From Alphaproteobacteria bacterium (GTDB lineage: Bacteria > Pseudomonadota > Alphaproteobacteria > CAAHEQ01 > UBA3637): a stretch of DNA of 63,190 nucleotides. This document shows positions 47,279 to 54,263 of the stretch, one piece after another. The stretch covers positions 1 to 63,190 of the forward strand of contig JBJEXE010000066.1 in NCBI GenBank assembly GCA_051885475.1. The letters run 5' to 3'. Made by a program: the position numbers and the translations under genes. The notes under the pieces were generated by a model, which ran no database searches, was not told the DNA's origin, and worked only from the letters and a program-made list of their open reading frames with translations. Positions within the stretch are counted from its first letter, which is position 1. Every line of letters begins with the position of its first letter.

Positions 47279-47653
47279 ATGGCGTGGACAGAAGACAAAA
47301 TTAAAAAATTAAAAAAACTATGGACGGCCGGAAAAGCAACCGCAGAAATTGCCAAAAATTTGGGGATGAGTAAAAACTCTATCATCGGAAAAGTGCACCG
47401 GTTAAATTTAACGGCACGCCCTAACCCCGTCAAAACAGAAGCAAAGCCACAAAAAAAAGCACCGCCTAAAAAAACGGGAATGGTGCGTTTGATTGATTTA
47501 AAAATCAACACCTGCCGTTGGCCCATTGGCGATCCAAAAGATGAAGATTTTCATTTTTGCGGGGAACAAACCGTTACAGGAAAGCCCTATTGTTTGGCCC
47601 ATTGCCAAGAGGCTTATGCTAATATGACCCCAGAAGTTGAAAAGAAAAAATAA
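47279..47653 (+). CDS. gcrA: GcrA cell-cycle regulator (short form)
   Basis: MAWTEDKIKKLKKLWTAGKATAEIAKNLG.SKNSIIGKVHRL and the C-terminal CRWPIGDP..FHFCG..KPYC..H. Confidence 0.85.
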   Translation: MAWTEDKIKKLKKLWTAGKATAEIAKNLGMSKNSIIGKVHRLNLTARPNPVKTEAKPQKKAPPKKTGMVRLIDLKINTCRWPIGDPKDEDFHFCGEQTVTGKPYCLAHCQEAYANMTPEVEKKK

Positions 47654-50268
47654 TGGAAGCCCCCCAAAAAACACTGTGTTTGGTGGATGGTTCGGGGTAT
47701 ATTTTTCGGGCCTTTTATGCCTTACCCCCAATGATACGTTCTGATGGAATACCGGTGGGCGCCGTTTATGGCTTTAGTGCAATGATGATGAATTTATTGC
47801 AAGAAAACGCCTCGGATCACATTGTGGTTGTTTTTGATGCTGCCAGACATAACTTCAGAAACGAAATTTACCCTGAATATAAAGCCAATCGGCGTGAAAC
47901 ACCACCGGATTTAATTCCTCAATTTCCACTGATTCGTGAAGCCTGTGAAGCCATGAATGTCGCTTGGATTGAAAAAGAAGGCTATGAAGCAGATGATTTA
48001 ATTGCGACTTTGGCGCATCAGGCAAGAAAGCAAGGAATGAAAGCACGAGTTATTTCTGCGGATAAAGATTTAATGCAGCTGATGGATGACAATACCAGCC
48101 TGTATGATCCGATGAAGAAAAAGGAAATTACCTTGGAAGATGTCTTGCAAAAGTTTGGTGTGGCCCCCGATAAAGTCACAGAAGTTCAAGCTTTAATGGG
48201 GGATTCAACCGATAATATCCCCGGCGCAAGCGGCGTGGGTCCCAAAACAGCAGCTGCCTTGATTCAACAATTCGGCAGCATCCAAAATATGTTTGAACAT
48301 TTGGGGGAAATTTCTTCTGACAAAAGGCGTGCTGGATTATTGGCCGATAAAGAAAAAATTGAAATGTCCCAAAAGTTAGTTTTACTGGATAAATATGTTC
48401 CTTTGAAAGGCGATTTAGAAGCATTTAAACGTCAAGAAACTGACCCCCAAAAATTGATTTCTTTTTTAAGCAAAAATAATTTTCAAAGTTTGGTTAAAAG
48501 AATCCATTTGATAGCGGCTCACTTTAATGAAACACCATCAAAAGAAATTCAAATCCTTTCATTGACAACGCCCAAAGAAGTTCAAACAGCCGTAGAAAAC
48601 CTCTCTCAAAAGAAAAGTTTTTCCTTTTATTTGAACCAAGATGAAAACAAAAATTTGTCAGGCATTTCATTGGCAGATGAAAACCAAATTTATATCATTA
48701 AAAAGGGCAATACTCTTCAAGGGGATTTATTTGAAACAAGTACCCCCCAAACAATCAGTCAAGAGTTTTTGAAATTACTGGCCCCGCTCTTTGGTTTAAA
48801 AAATACAGTTAAAATAGGCTATGATATAAAGGCGTGCATTCATTTATTGGCCAAAAATGAAATTGTTTTGCAAGAGCCCTTCTGGGATGTGATGTTGATG
48901 AGCTATGATTTAGACGGGTCCAAACATTCACACGATTTGGAAACTTTAAAAGGCCTTTATTTTCCAAACGAAGACGGCCAAGATAAAGAAGCCTTTTTTA
49001 TCCATCAAATGGCCCAGAAAATAAAAGAAGAACTGATTGCACAGAATGAGTGGGCAACCTATGAGGATATTGATGCTCCTTTGATTCGTATTTTAGCCGA
49101 TATGGAAAAAGAAGGGATTTTGTTGAATGAAGAGCATTTAAAAAAATTAGAAGAAATTTTAAATCAAAGATTAGAAAATTTGAGTCAGCAAATTCACACA
49201 CTGACGGGTGAAGAGGTCAACATCAATTCCCCTGCGCAGTTGGGCGTCGTTTTATTTGAAAAAAGAGGACTAAAAGGCGGAAAGCGTGGGCCGAACGGCC
49301 ATTGGGTGACAGATGTGAAAGTGTTGGAACAATTGGCTGACGAACAAGAAGATGCATTAGCCCAACTGATTTTAGAGTACCGAAAAGCCGCCAAATTAAA
49401 GTCAACCTATATAGATGCTTTATTGGAAAGAATCAAAGAAAATCCACGCGTTTCTACCACCTTTTCGTTGGTGGCGACCAATACAGGACGACTGGCTTCT
49501 GCAAATCCAAACTTGCAAAACATTCCCGTTAGGACAGAAGAAGGCAAAGAAATTCGGGAAAGCTTTATTGCAAAAGAAGGCTGCCTGCTCTTATCTGCCG
49601 ATTATTCACAAATAGAACTGCGTTTAATTGCAGATGTCGCCAAGGTGGTCAAGCTGCGCGAATCCTTTTTAAAAAACGAAGATATTCATGCCAGAACCGC
49701 CAGTGAAGTATTGGGGCTTCCTTTAAATGAAATTACGGCAGATTTACGCCGACAAGCAAAAGCCATCAATTTCGGCATTATTTATGGCATTTCGGGTTTT
49801 GGCTTGGCTCGGAATTTAAAAATTTCCAGAACTGAAGCAAATCGTTATATTGACTCATACTTTGCTCAATACCCGGAAATCAAAGAATATATGAAAAAAA
49901 CAATTCAATTCGCAACTGAAAAAGGCTATATCAAAACACCTTTCGGGCGTAAAATTTATATTGAAGGATTGAATGCGGGTAAAACAAAATCTTTTGCCGA
50001 ACGCGCCGCCATCAATGCCCCCATTCAAGGAGGCGCTGCCGACATTATCAAAATGGCCATGATTCGCGTTCAAAAAGTGTTAAATCAAAAGAAGATACCA
50101 GCGAAACTCCTGTTGCAAATTCATGACGAACTGGTCTTTGAAGTAGCGGAAGAATTTGCTGAAGAAGCCGGCCGGATTATTAAAGAAAATATGGAACAAG
50201 TCGTCAAGTTATCTGTTCCTTTGGTGGTGGAAGTGGGTATCGGTAAAAACTGGCGCCAAGCGCATTAA
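47653..50268 (+). CDS. polA: DNA polymerase I
   Basis: 871 aa. 5' nuclease domain (LVDGSGYIFRAFYA), polymerase motif A (LSADYSQIELR) and motif C (QIHDELVFE). Confidence 0.95.
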   Translation: MEAPQKTLCLVDGSGYIFRAFYALPPMIRSDGIPVGAVYGFSAMMMNLLQENASDHIVVVFDAARHNFRNEIYPEYKANRRETPPDLIPQFPLIREACEAMNVAWIEKEGYEADDLIATLAHQARKQGMKARVISADKDLMQLMDDNTSLYDPMKKKEITLEDVLQKFGVAPDKVTEVQALMGDSTDNIPGASGVGPKTAAALIQQFGSIQNMFEHLGEISSDKRRAGLLADKEKIEMSQKLVLLDKYVPLKGDLEAFKRQETDPQKLISFLSKNNFQSLVKRIHLIAAHFNETPSKEIQILSLTTPKEVQTAVENLSQKKSFSFYLNQDENKNLSGISLADENQIYIIKKGNTLQGDLFETSTPQTISQEFLKLLAPLFGLKNTVKIGYDIKACIHLLAKNEIVLQEPFWDVMLMSYDLDGSKHSHDLETLKGLYFPNEDGQDKEAFFIHQMAQKIKEELIAQNEWATYEDIDAPLIRILADMEKEGILLNEEHLKKLEEILNQRLENLSQQIHTLTGEEVNINSPAQLGVVLFEKRGLKGGKRGPNGHWVTDVKVLEQLADEQEDALAQLILEYRKAAKLKSTYIDALLERIKENPRVSTTFSLVATNTGRLASANPNLQNIPVRTEEGKEIRESFIAKEGCLLLSADYSQIELRLIADVAKVVKLRESFLKNEDIHARTASEVLGLPLNEITADLRRQAKAINFGIIYGISGFGLARNLKISRTEANRYIDSYFAQYPEIKEYMKKTIQFATEKGYIKTPFGRKIYIEGLNAGKTKSFAERAAINAPIQGGAADIIKMAMIRVQKVLNQKKIPAKLLLQIHDELVFEVAEEFAEEAGRIIKENMEQVVKLSVPLVVEVGIGKNWRQAH

Positions 50269-50360: not shown

Positions 50361-50445
50361 GCCCAGGTGGCGGAATTGGTAGACGCGCTCGTTTCAGGTG
50401 CGAGTCCCGCAAGGGGTGGGGGTTCGAGTCCCTTCTTGGGCACCA
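50361..50445 (+). tRNA. tRNA-Leu (anticodon CAG), CCA encoded
   Basis: Acceptor GCCCAGG/(C)CTTGGGC, anticodon loop TTCAGGT, long variable arm, T-loop TTCGAGT. Confidence 0.85.
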
Positions 50446-50475
50446 AAAAAGCCTTTTTATCAAAGGCTTTTTTTA
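50446..50475. terminator. bidirectional terminator between tRNA-Leu(CAG) and chpT
   Basis: AGCCTTT-TTATC-AAAGGCT flanked by an A-run and a T-run. Confidence 0.6.
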
Positions 50476-50503: not shown

Positions 50504-51040
50504 TCAGGCGATTTTTAAGCACATCGTCCCTTGATTTTGAGTGAGTTTCAGGGTTTTCCCCTGCTCTTTTAATTGATGCATCAACCATTCAGCTTCAACA
50601 GTTTCCGGTGAAGGAGAAACCACCTGATCGGACAGGGATGCCATAAAAGCTGGGCGTGCTGTGATTTCCGGTCCCGTTAAGGTCATTTGGCCGTCAGTTA
50701 GTTTTATAGAGCCGCCTTGGGCCAACAAAAGGATACCAACGGCCACCAACGATAATTGCAAGCGGTTTTGAGGAATACCGTCAAAAGTGATTTTTTGCCC
50801 CCACGTTTTCAAATAATCCGTGATAATAGAAGCGTTGATTTCTTTTGTTTCGGCCCCAAACAAAGCGCGGTAAAAACGAAGACGTGCCATCAACATCAAA
50901 CTGTTTTGTTTCAGCATTTCTCCTGCTTCATTTTGAAAACCTGGATCAATTTCCATCAATTCCGCCGTAGAGGCCATTGCCCCTATTCCACCGGCTAAAT
51001 CATGACTTATTTTTACAACAATTGCTTCTGTCAATGTCAT
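50504..51040 (-). CDS. chpT: histidine phosphotransferase ChpT-like
   Basis: VVKISHDLAGGIGAMASTAELME matches the ChpT H-box region. 178 aa. Confidence 0.65.
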   Translation of the reverse strand: MTLTEAIVVKISHDLAGGIGAMASTAELMEIDPGFQNEAGEMLKQNSLMLMARLRFYRALFGAETKEINASIITDYLKTWGQKITFDGIPQNRLQLSLVAVGILLLAQGGSIKLTDGQMTLTGPEITARPAFMASLSDQVVSPSPETVEAEWLMHQLKEQGKTLKLTQNQGTMCLKIA

Positions 51041-51915
51041 TTCTTTTTTCCTTTTACCCTTTCCGAAAGAACCTGACCGATTTTATCAGGCGCATCAATC
51101 CAAATCGCTGTTGCTTTGGTCAGAAGTTTTTTCTTTTCGTCAATCACATCCGAAAATAAAACGGATTTCATTCCCAATAAAGGCGCTTTATCCGAGCGCG
51201 CCAAGGCTTTTCCGGGAATATACACAAACAATTTTTTAGTATGTTTTTTCGCATAAAAGGCGGCCAATTCCTGCTCTAACGTGCCATGCACTTGCCCTAC
51301 CACCAAAATAGCTTTCGTTGCTTCATCGGCGTATAAGGCCTGCATCACCGGTATAAAATCTGTGCCAATTAAATGATCCGCCCCCAATGAGATACATTTG
51401 GAAACACCCAAACCACAAGCCGAAAGCTGACCCGCAGCTTCAAACATCAAAGATGCAGAGCGCCCGATAATGGCAATATTTCCTTTTTCAAAAAGGGGCG
51501 TTGGCATAGTGCCCGTTAAGGCCGAATTGACAGCCAAAACACCTGCAGAAGAAGGACCTAACAACGTGATTTTTGCCTTTTGGGCAGCCAATTTCATTTT
51601 TAAAGCATCGTGCATCGGCACATGTTGAGTCGTGCAAATAATGAAAGGAATTTTGGCTTTGATGGCTTCTAATACATCCTTTAGGGCCTTTTCCGGCGTT
51701 GAAAAAACAACACTGATTTTGGGATGTTTCGCACGTACGGCTTGAGCCACAGAACGATATAAGGGAATTCCGTTCAATTTTCCCGATATTTCAGAGCCGA
51801 CACCAGCCACAACATTTGTCCCGTAGGCCAGGGCTTTTTCCGTTTGATAGCGTCCCATCATTGAAGTAATCCCTTGAAACAAGACAGGGGTTCGGTTATC
51901 TGCAAAAAAGAACAT
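51037..51915 (-). CDS. succinyl-CoA ligase alpha-subunit-like protein lacking the phosphohistidine loop
   Basis: It aligns by eye with SucD along its whole length (VLFQGITS..AYGTNVVAGV, IIGRSASLMFEA, CISLGAD). The position of GKRMGHAGAI reads SDKAPLLGMKSVL, with no His. Confidence 0.6.
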   Translation of the reverse strand: MFFFADNRTPVLFQGITSMMGRYQTEKALAYGTNVVAGVGSEISGKLNGIPLYRSVAQAVRAKHPKISVVFSTPEKALKDVLEAIKAKIPFIICTTQHVPMHDALKMKLAAQKAKITLLGPSSAGVLAVNSALTGTMPTPLFEKGNIAIIGRSASLMFEAAGQLSACGLGVSKCISLGADHLIGTDFIPVMQALYADEATKAILVVGQVHGTLEQELAAFYAKKHTKKLFVYIPGKALARSDKAPLLGMKSVLFSDVIDEKKKLLTKATAIWIDAPDKIGQVLSERVKGKKK

Positions 51916-53054
51916 TACTTACCCCCTTTCACTTGTTTCACAATTTCCGAAACAGCATCCGTCATTTGATTCATAACCCAAAAAGGCGAAATGGAATGAT
52001 TCAGAAGGTGCGTCCCTTCCGCTGCATCCAAACCCGCCATACGCACAACAACCGGAATCCCTGTGGCAATTTCGGGTGAAGCCGCCAAAACCCCTTCAGC
52101 AATCGTTTTACAGCCCGTCAATCCACCAAAAATATTGACAAGAATACCATCTACGTTTGGTTCTGCCAAAGCCAACTTCATTGCCTTGGTAATCGCATTG
52201 GCCGAAGGTTCGGTCCCAACATCCAACAAACAAGCCACACGTCCTTTTTTTTGATGGATTAAATCTATCGTCGCCCAACCAAGCCCTATACCATTGACCA
52301 AACACGCAATATTCCCGTCCATTTTCGTATAGCGAAAGGCATTTTTTTTGGCCAGTGCTTCCCGTTCGTGTCCCCATTTTATTTCTTGGCATTTCACAAT
52401 TTCCGGAAAACGAAAGAGGGAATCAGGGTCAAAAATCAATCGTCCGTCCACCACAACCAACGTCTTATCATTTTGAACAATAGGGTTCAATTCCACAGCC
52501 ACTGCCCCATAAAATGTAAAAAGATGGTAGGCTTTTTCCAAGATTTCCCACAACATTTTGGCTACCACACGGTCATGAATTTTCATCATTTTTAAAATTT
52601 CTTTTTTATGAGAAGCCTCTAATTTCAAATCTTTTAAATAAAAAGTTTTTTGGGCGTGTTCGGAAAAAAGTGTCAAAGTATAAGTTTGTTTGTTAAAATC
52701 CACCCTGAACACAAAACAGCAAAGTGATTTTCTTTGAATTGCTCGTTCCACATAAACACGGTTGATTGTTGCCGGCACATCCGGCGCAAAACCTTGTAAA
52801 GAGCACCCCAAAATGCCATCTGCCGCCGCAAAAGCTTGATCAGGGGTTTCAGCCAATTTTTTTTCCAACAAAGGATTTGACTGTTTTTGAGGGGAATAGC
52901 CCAACAACACCTGGGGCTTTACCCAGAAAGGCCCCTCCCCGATTTTAAGTGCCGCTTCCTTGGCTTCCTGGGGCGTATAAGCCACCCCACCGGCCGGTAC
53001 AGGCAAACCGGCTTGTTCAAAAATAGCTTTCACGTAATATTCATGCAGTTCCAT
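51915..53054 (-). CDS. succinyl-CoA ligase beta-subunit-like protein with degenerate ATP-grasp glycine loop
   Basis: MELHEYYVKAIFEQAGLPVP..FWVKPQV resembles the SucC N-terminus. AGGRGKAGGV is replaced by LGYSPQKQSN, and LDVGGGA is replaced by LDVGTEP. NIFGG is retained. Confidence 0.6.
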   Translation of the reverse strand: MELHEYYVKAIFEQAGLPVPAGGVAYTPQEAKEAALKIGEGPFWVKPQVLLGYSPQKQSNPLLEKKLAETPDQAFAAADGILGCSLQGFAPDVPATINRVYVERAIQRKSLCCFVFRVDFNKQTYTLTLFSEHAQKTFYLKDLKLEASHKKEILKMMKIHDRVVAKMLWEILEKAYHLFTFYGAVAVELNPIVQNDKTLVVVDGRLIFDPDSLFRFPEIVKCQEIKWGHEREALAKKNAFRYTKMDGNIACLVNGIGLGWATIDLIHQKKGRVACLLDVGTEPSANAITKAMKLALAEPNVDGILVNIFGGLTGCKTIAEGVLAASPEIATGIPVVVRMAGLDAAEGTHLLNHSISPFWVMNQMTDAVSEIVKQVKGGK

Positions 53055-53089
53055 AAAAACCCCTTTTGCCTGATTTTATTGTGTTTTAA

Positions 53090-53971
53090 CTAAGTTGTCA
53101 ATCTCTTTTTTAAATCCTGAAGTTTTTCCCGTAACGTTTTGGGATGTTCCTGATAAATCAAAGGCATCAAAAAGGCATTCAATTTTTTATCCAATTCCTC
53201 CATATTTGAAAAAGTGTTGACCTTCCCGTTTTTTACCAAGGACACATCCCCTGTTTCTTCCGACACAACCAGACAAAGAGCATCCGTATTTTCGGAAAGG
53301 CCAATCGCTGCCCTGTGACGCGTGCCATACTTCCAAGAAAGATCCAAGCTGGTGGACAAAGGCAGAATGACCCCTGCCGATACAACACGTTTTCCCCGAA
53401 TTAAAACAGCCCCATCGTGCAACGGCGTATTCACAAAAAAGATATTGATCAACAATTCCGCAGATAAAACGGCATCTAAAGCCACACCACCCGTTAAAAC
53501 CATATCCAAAGGTTCTTGATTTTCAAAAACAATCAATGCACCCGTTTCATGCGTGCGCCAATAGGAAATCGTTTGCATTAAAAGATTAACCAAATCTTTG
53601 CCTTCTTTTTTACGTTTTTTATGCGACCAAGCGTTCCACGAAAGGTTGTTTCCAAAGCGCGCCATTAAACGGCGCAGTTCCGGTTGAAAAATAACCACAA
53701 ATGAAAGAAGAAGTAAAATAATTAAATTCTTTAAAAGGCCGCTTAAAATACGCAAATGAAACAGCGAAAAAACTTCACTGACAAGCCAAACAATGACCAA
53801 GAAAAACAAAATCCCTTTAACCGTTTTTTCCGCCGGAGAATTTTGAAGCAATTTTTTATAGCCAAACCACAAAAAGATAATGATAATACCGACTTGCAAC
53901 AAAAAACTGGCCCAAGATAAACCAGACACCCCCAATAAAGATTGTAATTGTTCGCGTAAGTGTTGAATCAT
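53090..53971 (-). CDS. cdaA: membrane-anchored diadenylate cyclase (CdaA/DacA type)
   Basis: Three N-terminal TM helices and a DAC domain with TGALIVF, LHDGAVLI and GTRHRAAIGLSE..VVSEETG motifs. Confidence 0.85.
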   Translation of the reverse strand: MIQHLREQLQSLLGVSGLSWASFLLQVGIIIIFLWFGYKKLLQNSPAEKTVKGILFFLVIVWLVSEVFSLFHLRILSGLLKNLIILLLLSFVVIFQPELRRLMARFGNNLSWNAWSHKKRKKEGKDLVNLLMQTISYWRTHETGALIVFENQEPLDMVLTGGVALDAVLSAELLINIFFVNTPLHDGAVLIRGKRVVSAGVILPLSTSLDLSWKYGTRHRAAIGLSENTDALCLVVSEETGDVSLVKNGKVNTFSNMEELDKKLNAFLMPLIYQEHPKTLREKLQDLKKRLTT

Positions 53972-54038: not shown

Positions 54039-54263
54039 TTAAGTGCTACGTGCTCCTTGTTTTTGACGCATCAAAGTCATCAGTTTTTGTTTTGCTTGTT
54101 CGGCTTTTTGTTTGGCCTCTTGCGCGCGACGCTGTTCTTCTTCTAATTGACGCGTCCTTTCTTCGTAATAAGCGGCCCGTCGTTCTTCCAACTGGCGGCG
54201 TTTTGTGGCTTTTTCCAATTCTTCTTTTGAGCGATCCGTTTCAGGTCTTTCGTTTTCTTGCAT
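54039..54263 (-). CDS. hypothetical highly charged coiled-coil peptide (74 aa)
   Basis: ORF composed mostly of E/R/K/Q (EERRAAYYEERTRQLEEEQRRAQEAKQKAEQAKQK). Whether it is coding is uncertain. Confidence 0.3.
   Translation of the reverse strand: MQENERPETDRSKEELEKATKRRQLEERRAAYYEERTRQLEEEQRRAQEAKQKAEQAKQKLMTLMRQKQGARST

Follow-up and report, generated by a model that had tools for sequence, protein, structure and literature searches.

We describe a pair of genes, sucC' and sucD', that resemble the two subunits that make up succinyl-CoA synthetase (SCS) but lack its key catalytic motifs. They lie in a 63,190-nucleotide stretch of DNA (contig JBJEXE010000066.1 of assembly GCA_051885475.1, positions 1 to 63,190; hereafter, the window) from a bacterium of the Alphaproteobacteria (GTDB lineage CAAHEQ01; UBA3637). 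Directly downstream is chpT, a gene for a histidine phosphotransferase. Judging by sequence comparisons, SucC'D' is very probably inactive as an SCS, and we are similarly confident that it is retained for another function. We give roughly an even chance to SucC'D' being a pseudoenzyme that is retained because it binds a ligand and partners the cell-cycle phosphorelay, in which ChpT transfers phosphate from CckA to CtrA.

An SCS-like pair without the catalytic motifs of SCS

Both genes are on the reverse strand. sucC' (51915-53054) is an open reading frame (ORF) for a 379-amino-acid protein that is similar to the beta subunit, SucC, and sucD' (51037-51915) is an ORF for a 292-amino-acid protein that is similar to the alpha subunit, SucD. 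SucC' contains the Pfam domains ATP-grasp_2 and Ligase_CoA, while SucD' contains CoA_binding and Succ_CoA_lig. Both proteins match SCS chains in the Protein Data Bank (PDB) from end to end (E values of about 1e-41 to 1e-46), in agreement with the original prediction, which was made from the letters of the sequence and claimed full-length alignment to SCS subunits. Matches to ATP-citrate lyase or to ADP-forming synthetases are far weaker. Structures were predicted for SucC' and for ChpT. In the AlphaFold model of SucC', the pLDDT is 88 overall and about 60 at the former glycine loop, and the most similar folds in the PDB are SCS beta chains (TMq 0.79-0.84), which rank above citryl-CoA synthetase and ATP-citrate lyase. 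The pair does not reach the NCBIfam equivalog cut-offs for SCS subunits (NF001913 and NF004230; 244 versus 370 bits and 208 versus 336 bits).

The catalytic motifs have been replaced. In a HMMER alignment to E. coli SucD (2NU7), with the numbering in register, the phosphohistidine His246 is replaced by leucine (Leu246, 51178-51180, reverse strand), and KRMGHAGA reads DKAPLLGM. The former phosphohistidine loop (codons 240-252, RSDKAPLLGMKSV, 51160-51198, reverse strand) was located in this alignment and in an order-wide alignment. SucD' also has Gln208 at the position of E. coli Glu208 (GEIGG to GQVHG) and Ser123 at that of Cys123. Its last histidine is residue 225, which is 67 residues before the end. 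In an alignment to E. coli SucC, the nucleotide-phosphate-binding glycine loop HAGGRGKAGGV is replaced in SucC' by LLGYSPQKQSN (codons 49-60, VLLGYSPQKQSN, 52875-52910, reverse strand), and LDVGGGAT is replaced by LDVGTEPS (DVGTEPS is encoded by codons 278-284, 52203-52223, reverse strand). Several of these changes had been noticed by eye: the loss of the alpha loop GKRMGHAGAI, the lack of histidine in the final 70 or so residues, and both changes in the beta subunit. The alignments bear them out. The catalytic histidine and the glycine loop are not merely shifted: the in-register alignment to SucD has leucine at position 246, and the alignment to SucC has a different sequence in place of the loop. 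SucC' keeps the equivalents of beta Lys46, Glu99, Glu197 (as E188), Asn199, and Asp213, so its nucleotide site is crippled rather than erased. Nevertheless, with the swinging phosphohistidine gone (Leu246) and the phosphate-binding loop lost, the SCS reaction should no longer be possible.

In genus g1, SucD' has two new conserved histidines, H181 (in GADHLIG, at about 51373-51375 in the window) and H210 (in GQVHG, at about 51286-51288). They fall within GIGGDP and GEIGG, the motifs lining what was once the pocket of the phosphohistidine. Genus g26 shares His210, and the other genera have neither.

Compared to characterized SucCD (EC 6.2.1.5; E. coli 1SCU, 2SCU, 1JKJ, and 2NU7, Thermus 3UFX, and pig 2FP4), SucC'D' has the same arrangement of a gene pair with overlapping stop and start codons, the same domain order, and the same fold (TMq of about 0.8). 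SucC' is 27-31% identical to the beta subunits with solved structures, and the C-terminal domains, the CoA core, and the phosphate cradle are kept. On the other hand, SucC'D' lacks the phosphohistidine, Glu208, and the glycine loop, its GGGA motif is replaced, it has no tricarboxylic acid (TCA) cycle context, and it shares an operon with chpT. The CoA-binding, CoA-ligase, and ATP-grasp domains also occur in ATP-citrate lyase, citryl-CoA synthetase, and ADP-forming acetyl-CoA synthetase (ACD), but besides giving much weaker matches than SCS, these enzymes depend on a phosphohistidine, which is kept in the genome's own ACD.

The histidine is missing across an entire order

The genome that carries the window is 916 kb in 70 contigs and is 91% complete. 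We compared it to an order-wide sample of 80 species from 16 genera and one family; these are Alphaproteobacteria of the gut and rumen with small genomes (0.7-2.0 Mb). A SucD-like match is present in 79 of the 80 genomes and a full-length gene in 76. Among the four genomes without a full-length sucD', three are just 63-75% complete, and in the other the gene is split over two contigs. None of the 80 genomes reaches the NCBIfam cut-off for SucD (scores of 200-325 bits), and a second, canonical SucC or SucD was not found in the window's genome or in any of the 80.

We aligned 29 SucD' sequences from 15 of the 16 genera, and the catalytic histidine is missing from all 29. The sequences fall into two tiers. 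In the near-canonical tier (six genera), the loop reads TYMGNIGAIV, with asparagine in place of histidine, and GEIGG is kept. In the derived tier, which includes the genus of the window's genome, there is a variable xPLLGx loop, with leucine or other residues at the histidine site, and GEIGG is lost. In a tree with canonical SucD, the 29 sequences form one clade (SH-aLRT support of 100) with a long stem inside proteobacterial SucD, and the derived tier is a clade nested within it (support of 100). Since all 29 fall into one clade, the histidine was lost once, early, with further change later. In SucC', the glycine loop and GGGA are changed in every genus, and order-wide the replacement for DVGGGAT is D[VLI]G[TGA]EP[ST].

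These genes are under purifying selection. By the NG86 method, the ratio of nonsynonymous to synonymous substitution rates (dN/dS) is 0.10 for both sucC' and sucD' relative to the closest sampled species, which is similar to the value for cdaA, an upstream neighbor (0.075). In other within-genus pairs with computable dS, the ratio is 0.03-0.2. As dS is saturated or nearly so in all pairs, these ratios are rough, upper-range estimates, and they cannot be used to compare genera with and without ChpT. Taken together, the homology to an enzyme, the loss of its catalytic residues, and ORFs that have stayed intact during a long period of purifying selection mark SucC'D' as a pseudoenzyme, as far as sequence can tell.

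Could sucC'D' instead be decaying relics of sucCD that are still open by chance? The TCA cycle is gone from these organisms, the catalytic motifs are relaxed, and the branches are long, all as would be expected from decay. However, 76 of the 80 genomes, which represent 16 genera, have intact ORFs, and the exceptions are three incomplete genomes and a gene that is split over two contigs; dN/dS is at most 0.2; 31 + 39 positions are conserved with working SucCD; and the model of SucC' is confident. We consider decay to be extremely unlikely.

Succinyl-CoA has no evident source or use

In the window's genome, we did not find genes for 2-oxoglutarate dehydrogenase E1 (sucA), citrate synthase (gltA), SdhA/FrdA, or DapD. 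Furthermore, none of the order's 56 genomes with a completeness of 90% or more has sucA, and no succinate/acetate CoA-transferase was found in the order. Going by gene content, we see nothing that would make succinyl-CoA or consume it. An ATP-yielding cycle of succinate/acetate CoA-transferase and SCS, as either the ancestral or the current role, was rejected because that transferase was not found in the order, and DapD as a consumer of succinyl-CoA was rejected because DapD was not found.

The sole other member of the superfamily in the genome is an ACD (TIGR02717, 469 bits) whose catalytic histidine is intact (SLSHTGS). It is probably ACD that actually carries out substrate-level phosphorylation in these organisms. 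Nearly all genomes of the order have a copy, about 700 amino acids long; in the window's genome, the gene is truncated by the end of its contig (C67:2-1666, reverse strand).

Overall, the loss of the histidine, the lack of a second sucCD, the absence of the TCA cycle partners, the selection on the pair, and its conserved gene order support the original suggestion of a pseudoenzyme or neofunctionalized scaffold that would not be a TCA cycle enzyme. In public annotations of close relatives, the proteins are named "succinate--CoA ligase" or "CoA-binding protein." The former name would lead metabolic reconstructions of these Alphaproteobacteria, which are abundant in the gut and rumen, to wrongly credit them with a TCA cycle step or with substrate-level phosphorylation. 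Our literature searches on SCS together with ChpT, or on SCS together with pseudoenzymes, turned up no publication on this operon.

The pair is linked to chpT and to other cell-cycle genes

The gene downstream of sucD' (50504-51040, reverse strand) encodes a 178-amino-acid protein with no match in Pfam and a score of just 30 bits (versus a cut-off of 225) for the NCBIfam model of ChpT. Nevertheless, a profile built from 18 orthologues aligns with Brucella ChpT (4QPJ) from end to end (E = 7e-17) and also matches Caulobacter ChpT (4FMT). The predicted structure has a pLDDT of 93.5, and its seven top folds are all ChpT structures (TMq 0.77-0.83). H13-D14 is invariant among the orthologues, and His13 (51002-51004, reverse strand) is the predicted phospho-accepting residue. 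Together, the profile match and the predicted fold, that of a DHp-like helical hairpin with the conserved histidine joined to a degenerate CA-like domain, identify this protein as a real ChpT. It resembles the characterized ChpT proteins (Caulobacter 4FMT; Brucella 4QPJ and 4QPK) in its fold, in the H-D-L motif on the first helix, and in having CckA and CtrA partners in the genome. It differs in being shorter (they have about 210-250 amino acids), in falling far below the NCBIfam cut-off, and in lying beside a sucCD-like pair, which canonical chpT does not. The partners are a 706-amino-acid hybrid kinase whose best NCBIfam match is CckA (382 bits) and a 227-amino-acid regulator whose best match is CtrA (302 bits), both below the equivalog cut-offs. 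A GcrA-like gene is present as well.

The three genes are tightly packed. At the junction TAATG, the TAA of sucC' and the ATG of sucD' have an A in common, and at the junction ATGA, the ATG of chpT overlaps the TGA of sucD'. To see how general this arrangement is, we ran the ChpT profile against all 80 genomes and compared the coordinates to those of sucD'. Among the 67 genomes that have ChpT, chpT is directly 3' of sucD' and on the same strand in 62, so that the order sucC'-sucD'-chpT is indeed conserved in relatives. The five genomes with chpT elsewhere all belong to one genus. At each of the 22 loci that we read in detail, sucD' and chpT overlap or are separated by at most 11 nucleotides. 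As a control, we examined 80 canonical sucD loci from other bacteria (which were also used in the trees), and a chpT-like ORF lies within 6 kb of one of them.

Other cell-cycle genes are attached to the pair in some genera. The gene after chpT is ctrA in g26 (sucC'-sucD'-chpT-ctrA), and ctrA is convergent with chpT in g31. In g3, an orthologue of DivK (Caulobacter DivK 1M5T, E = 1e-40; the next match is at 1e-20) overlaps the start of sucC'. The overlap of the divK stop codon with the sucC' start is seen at L101:8267-8635 (g3) and also at L138:3010-3375 and L139:2756-3346.

Which parts of the SCS fold are still constrained

We compared conservation in the 29 His-less sequences to that in 39 (alpha) and 22 (beta) canonical ones. 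In the alpha subunit, the positions that are conserved in working SucD but relaxed in the clade are the histidine loop (237-258), GIGGDP, Glu208 and Gly210 (of GEIGG), and the TPGKGG segment. In the beta subunit, they are the glycine loop, the 107-113 region, and the Asn199 equivalent; the Glu197 equivalent, which is present in this SucC', is not conserved order-wide. Conserved in both groups are 31 + 39 positions. In the alpha subunit, these include the CoA-domain glycines and their neighbors (Q14 G15 and G120 P121 G125), G248, K261, and the N-terminus of the helix that holds the phosphate in SCS (R152 S153 and E159, with Thr155 switched to Ser). In the beta subunit, they include K46, NGxGL, LDxG, NIFGG, and VVR. 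This pattern indicates that the phosphohistidine shuttle and the nucleotide site have been freed from selection, while selection still acts on the former CoA/phosphate site and on the architecture of the subunits. The pair also serves as a natural experiment that shows where the SCS fold stays constrained once catalysis is lost.

From the constraint on the CoA/phosphate site, we infer that SucC'D' would still bind a small ligand, namely CoA, acyl-CoA, and/or phosphate. Our proposal for its role is as follows. The heterodimer, derived from the organism's own SCS, lost its histidine at the base of this order of TCA-less, small-genome bacteria and has been under purifying selection since. Its fold, its alpha/beta interface, the core of the CoA domain, and the site I phosphate cradle (R152-S153-x-S155...E159 in alpha and NIFGG in beta) have been held constant. 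Translated from one coupled mRNA with ChpT, it may act as a binding or regulatory partner of the His-Asp phosphorelay, interacting with ChpT, and could tie ChpT's phosphotransfer to the metabolic state of the cell. There are precedents in Caulobacter for cell-cycle regulators that derive from metabolic enzymes: KidO, which is oxidoreductase-like and lacks catalytic residues, and GdhZ. Like SucC'D' in this proposal, they have metabolic-enzyme ancestry, bind a metabolite or cofactor, and feed into alphaproteobacterial cell-cycle control. Unlike SucC'D', they have other folds and other targets (FtsZ and DivJ, not ChpT), and for SucC'D' the link is genomic. We know of no metabolic inputs at the level of ChpT. 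If the link is true, then SucC'D' would add a new case in which a core enzyme of metabolism was turned into a signaling component, and it would be a possible route for CoA or acyl-CoA status into the CckA-ChpT-CtrA cell-cycle switch.

The same conserved positions could also mean that SucC'D' is still an enzyme at the former site I. It might be a Pta-like acyl-phosphate:CoA acyltransferase, or a split SCS in which phosphorylated ChpT acts in trans and succinate and CoA, or acyl-CoA, drains or feeds the phosphorelay. Within the His-less clade, neither the cradle (R152, S153, S155, E159; NIFGG) nor the glycines of the CoA domain vary, the pair is translationally coupled to a gene whose product carries a phosphohistidine, and in g1, H181 and H210 line the old pocket. 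However, just 10 of the 42 near-complete genomes have acetate kinase (AckA), and the window's genome does not; a Pta-like reaction with AckA as the partner is thus not general, and we rejected that version. In the near-canonical tier, the protein's own asparagine loop is conserved and would fill site I. ChpT is absent from g3 and g4, the candidate carboxylate-site motif GGGA is replaced, and the histidine of ChpT is predicted to lie in a bundle of helices, a steric setting that differs from that of a mobile loop. We consider continued enzymatic activity at site I to be quite unlikely. The more specific idea of a split, SCS-like machine, in which ChpT would insert its phosphohistidine in trans into the site I cradle, is very unlikely. 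If true, an acyl-phosphate/acyl-CoA reaction would take phosphoryl groups from CckA-ChpT-CtrA or provide them, and a central metabolite would be a direct phosphodonor or sink for the master regulator of the cell cycle.

A second His-less clade and a possible function outside the phosphorelay

We searched 1.8 billion representative proteins with a profile for other SucD-like proteins without the histidine. This revealed a second large clade of SucCD from gut and rumen Alphaproteobacteria, in which His246 is replaced by tyrosine (MGYAGD) and LDVGGGAT by LNVKGGVDKD. We identified 22 such loci (L151-L172), in metagenome-assembled genomes labeled "Azospirillum sp." or "Rhodospirillaceae," where the pair is directly after a SufE-like ORF (GCQSQVWL). 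No chpT lies within 4 kb of these pairs. At L155, SufS-like and DUF59-like genes precede the SufE-like ORF and the Tyr-type pair. The Tyr-type proteins are like SucC'D' in being a pair with the histidine replaced, a remodeled site I, a gut or rumen habitat, and an automatic annotation as succinate--CoA ligase. They are unlike SucC'D' in that they keep the equivalents of Glu197, Asn199, and Asp213 and most of the glycine loop and have the SufE-like gene, not chpT, as their neighbor. Each of the two His-less clades is monophyletic (support of 100). Their sister relationship has support of 60% and involves long branches, so one shared loss of the histidine and two independent losses fit the tree alike.

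This clade bears on the possibility that SucC'D' is a selected pseudoenzyme whose function is unrelated to the phosphorelay. It might bind CoA or acyl-CoA, or have a chaperone-like or structural role, and it might share that function with the Tyr-type proteins; the neighboring chpT, ctrA, and divK would then reflect mere co-expression or a frozen gene order.

Several points weigh against our proposal or fit such a function. First, in nine genomes (from g3 and g4) that have SucD', the profile scan detected no ChpT, and no CckA orthologue was found in these two genera either (g3 includes 10 species). Because g3 and g4 keep sucC'D' under selection, the function of the pair cannot be strictly ChpT-dependent, and we discarded the idea of an obligate dependence on ChpT. 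Second, the Tyr-type clade has a SufE-like neighbor, and if both clades share one ancestral loss, then their common function would not be specific to a phosphorelay. Third, the upstream neighbors of sucC' vary: cdaA, a gene for a PggH-like phosphodiesterase, or neither. Fourth, gene order in small genomes can stay conserved without any physical interaction. Finally, several positions known to contact CoA in E. coli SCS (in the Gly17, Lys42, and Asn122 region) are also altered in the clade, so CoA binding by SucC'D' is not assured. (For a lineage of Alphaproteobacteria to have lost the CckA-ChpT arm is unusual in its own right.)

Other observations are difficult to explain by an unrelated function. 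Depending on the genus, chpT overlaps the pair at its 3' end or divK overlaps it at its 5' end, and ctrA is added in two further genera. The 62 of 67 chpT adjacencies have survived while SucD' identity fell to as low as 38% and other neighbors changed. Canonical sucCD loci do not have chpT. That two different cell-cycle genes attach to the pair in different lineages is less easily accounted for by a frozen gene order alone. On balance, an unrelated function seems somewhat unlikely, and we would put the chance that the function of SucC'D' lies in the phosphorelay at about half.

The upstream neighbors of sucC'

In the window, cdaA (53090-53971, reverse strand) is the upstream neighbor of sucC'. 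It encodes a diadenylate cyclase (TIGR00159, 209 bits versus a cut-off of 189), and there are 35 nucleotides between its stop codon and the start of sucC'. This spacing and the TAATG and ATGA couplings all read in the sequence as the original prediction had stated, but its further claim that the pair belongs to a signaling operon with cdaA holds in part. The grouping of sucC'D' with chpT stands, while the inclusion of cdaA does not. A putative sigma-70-like promoter (TTGACA-17-TAAAAT, 11 of 12 matches, 53073-53101, reverse strand; a pattern match from a consensus scan) spans the stop codon of cdaA just 5' of sucC' and is followed by a ribosome-binding site, AAAGGGG. At the other end of the operon, a terminator-like hairpin of 12 bp with runs of T and A on both sides (50445-50473, no strand assigned; also a pattern match) sits between the convergent genes chpT and polA. 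Given these two elements, the simplest transcription unit is sucC'-sucD'-chpT. By this evidence, cdaA is probably a separate unit, although read-through is possible. Also, cdaA adjoins sucC' in just part of genus g1, and it is present in 8 of the 42 near-complete genomes, in parts of three genera. Its patchy distribution suggests that c-di-AMP signaling was gained, or was repeatedly lost, within the order.

In five genera of the near-canonical tier, a gene for a PggH-like phosphodiesterase of the DHH/DHHA1 type is directly upstream of sucC', so that the unit is PggH-like gene-sucC'-sucD'-chpT. The protein has 306-412 amino acids and matches PggH (PDB 7D62), a DHH/DHHA1 phosphodiesterase that acts on pGpG, with 345 bits (E = 3e-102). 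It has no significant match in Pfam, with a sub-threshold match to DHHA1 in one member. A representative is at L104:8209-9222 (reverse strand), with equivalents at L122, L124, L125, L127, and L133-L135. In four of these five genera, chpT is followed by genes for a receiver-only regulator and cheR, in organisms that are not obviously chemotactic.

These neighbors raise the possibility of a cyclic-dinucleotide role, for example with SucC'D' as a receptor for c-di-AMP that binds via the degenerate nucleotide site. A gene for making a dinucleotide is directly 5' of sucC' here and in several g1 species, and a gene for a dinucleotide phosphodiesterase takes that place in five other genera. However, cdaA is present in just 8 of 42 near-complete genomes, and genomes with the PggH-like neighbor lack it, the PggH-like gene was not found in the window's genome, and the promoter-like site separates cdaA from sucC'. 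A role in c-di-AMP signaling thus has low odds, and the PggH-like gene 5' of sucC' makes a curious coincidence with cdaA. We regard a cyclic-dinucleotide role in general as very improbable.

Other features near the operon

On the other side of the hairpin, gcrA (47279-47653, forward strand) and polA (47653-50268, forward strand) share one base between the stop codon of gcrA and the start codon of polA, so that a cell-cycle regulator is translationally coupled to DNA polymerase I. This pair also adjoins the operon in one relative (locus L107). Between cdaA and the gene gap is a 74-amino-acid ORF (54039-54263, reverse strand) whose product is extremely rich in E, R, K, and Q. A sister species has a counterpart that is 63% identical (L097:8905-9150), and a perfect TTGACA-16-TATAAT site lies upstream of it (54319-54292).

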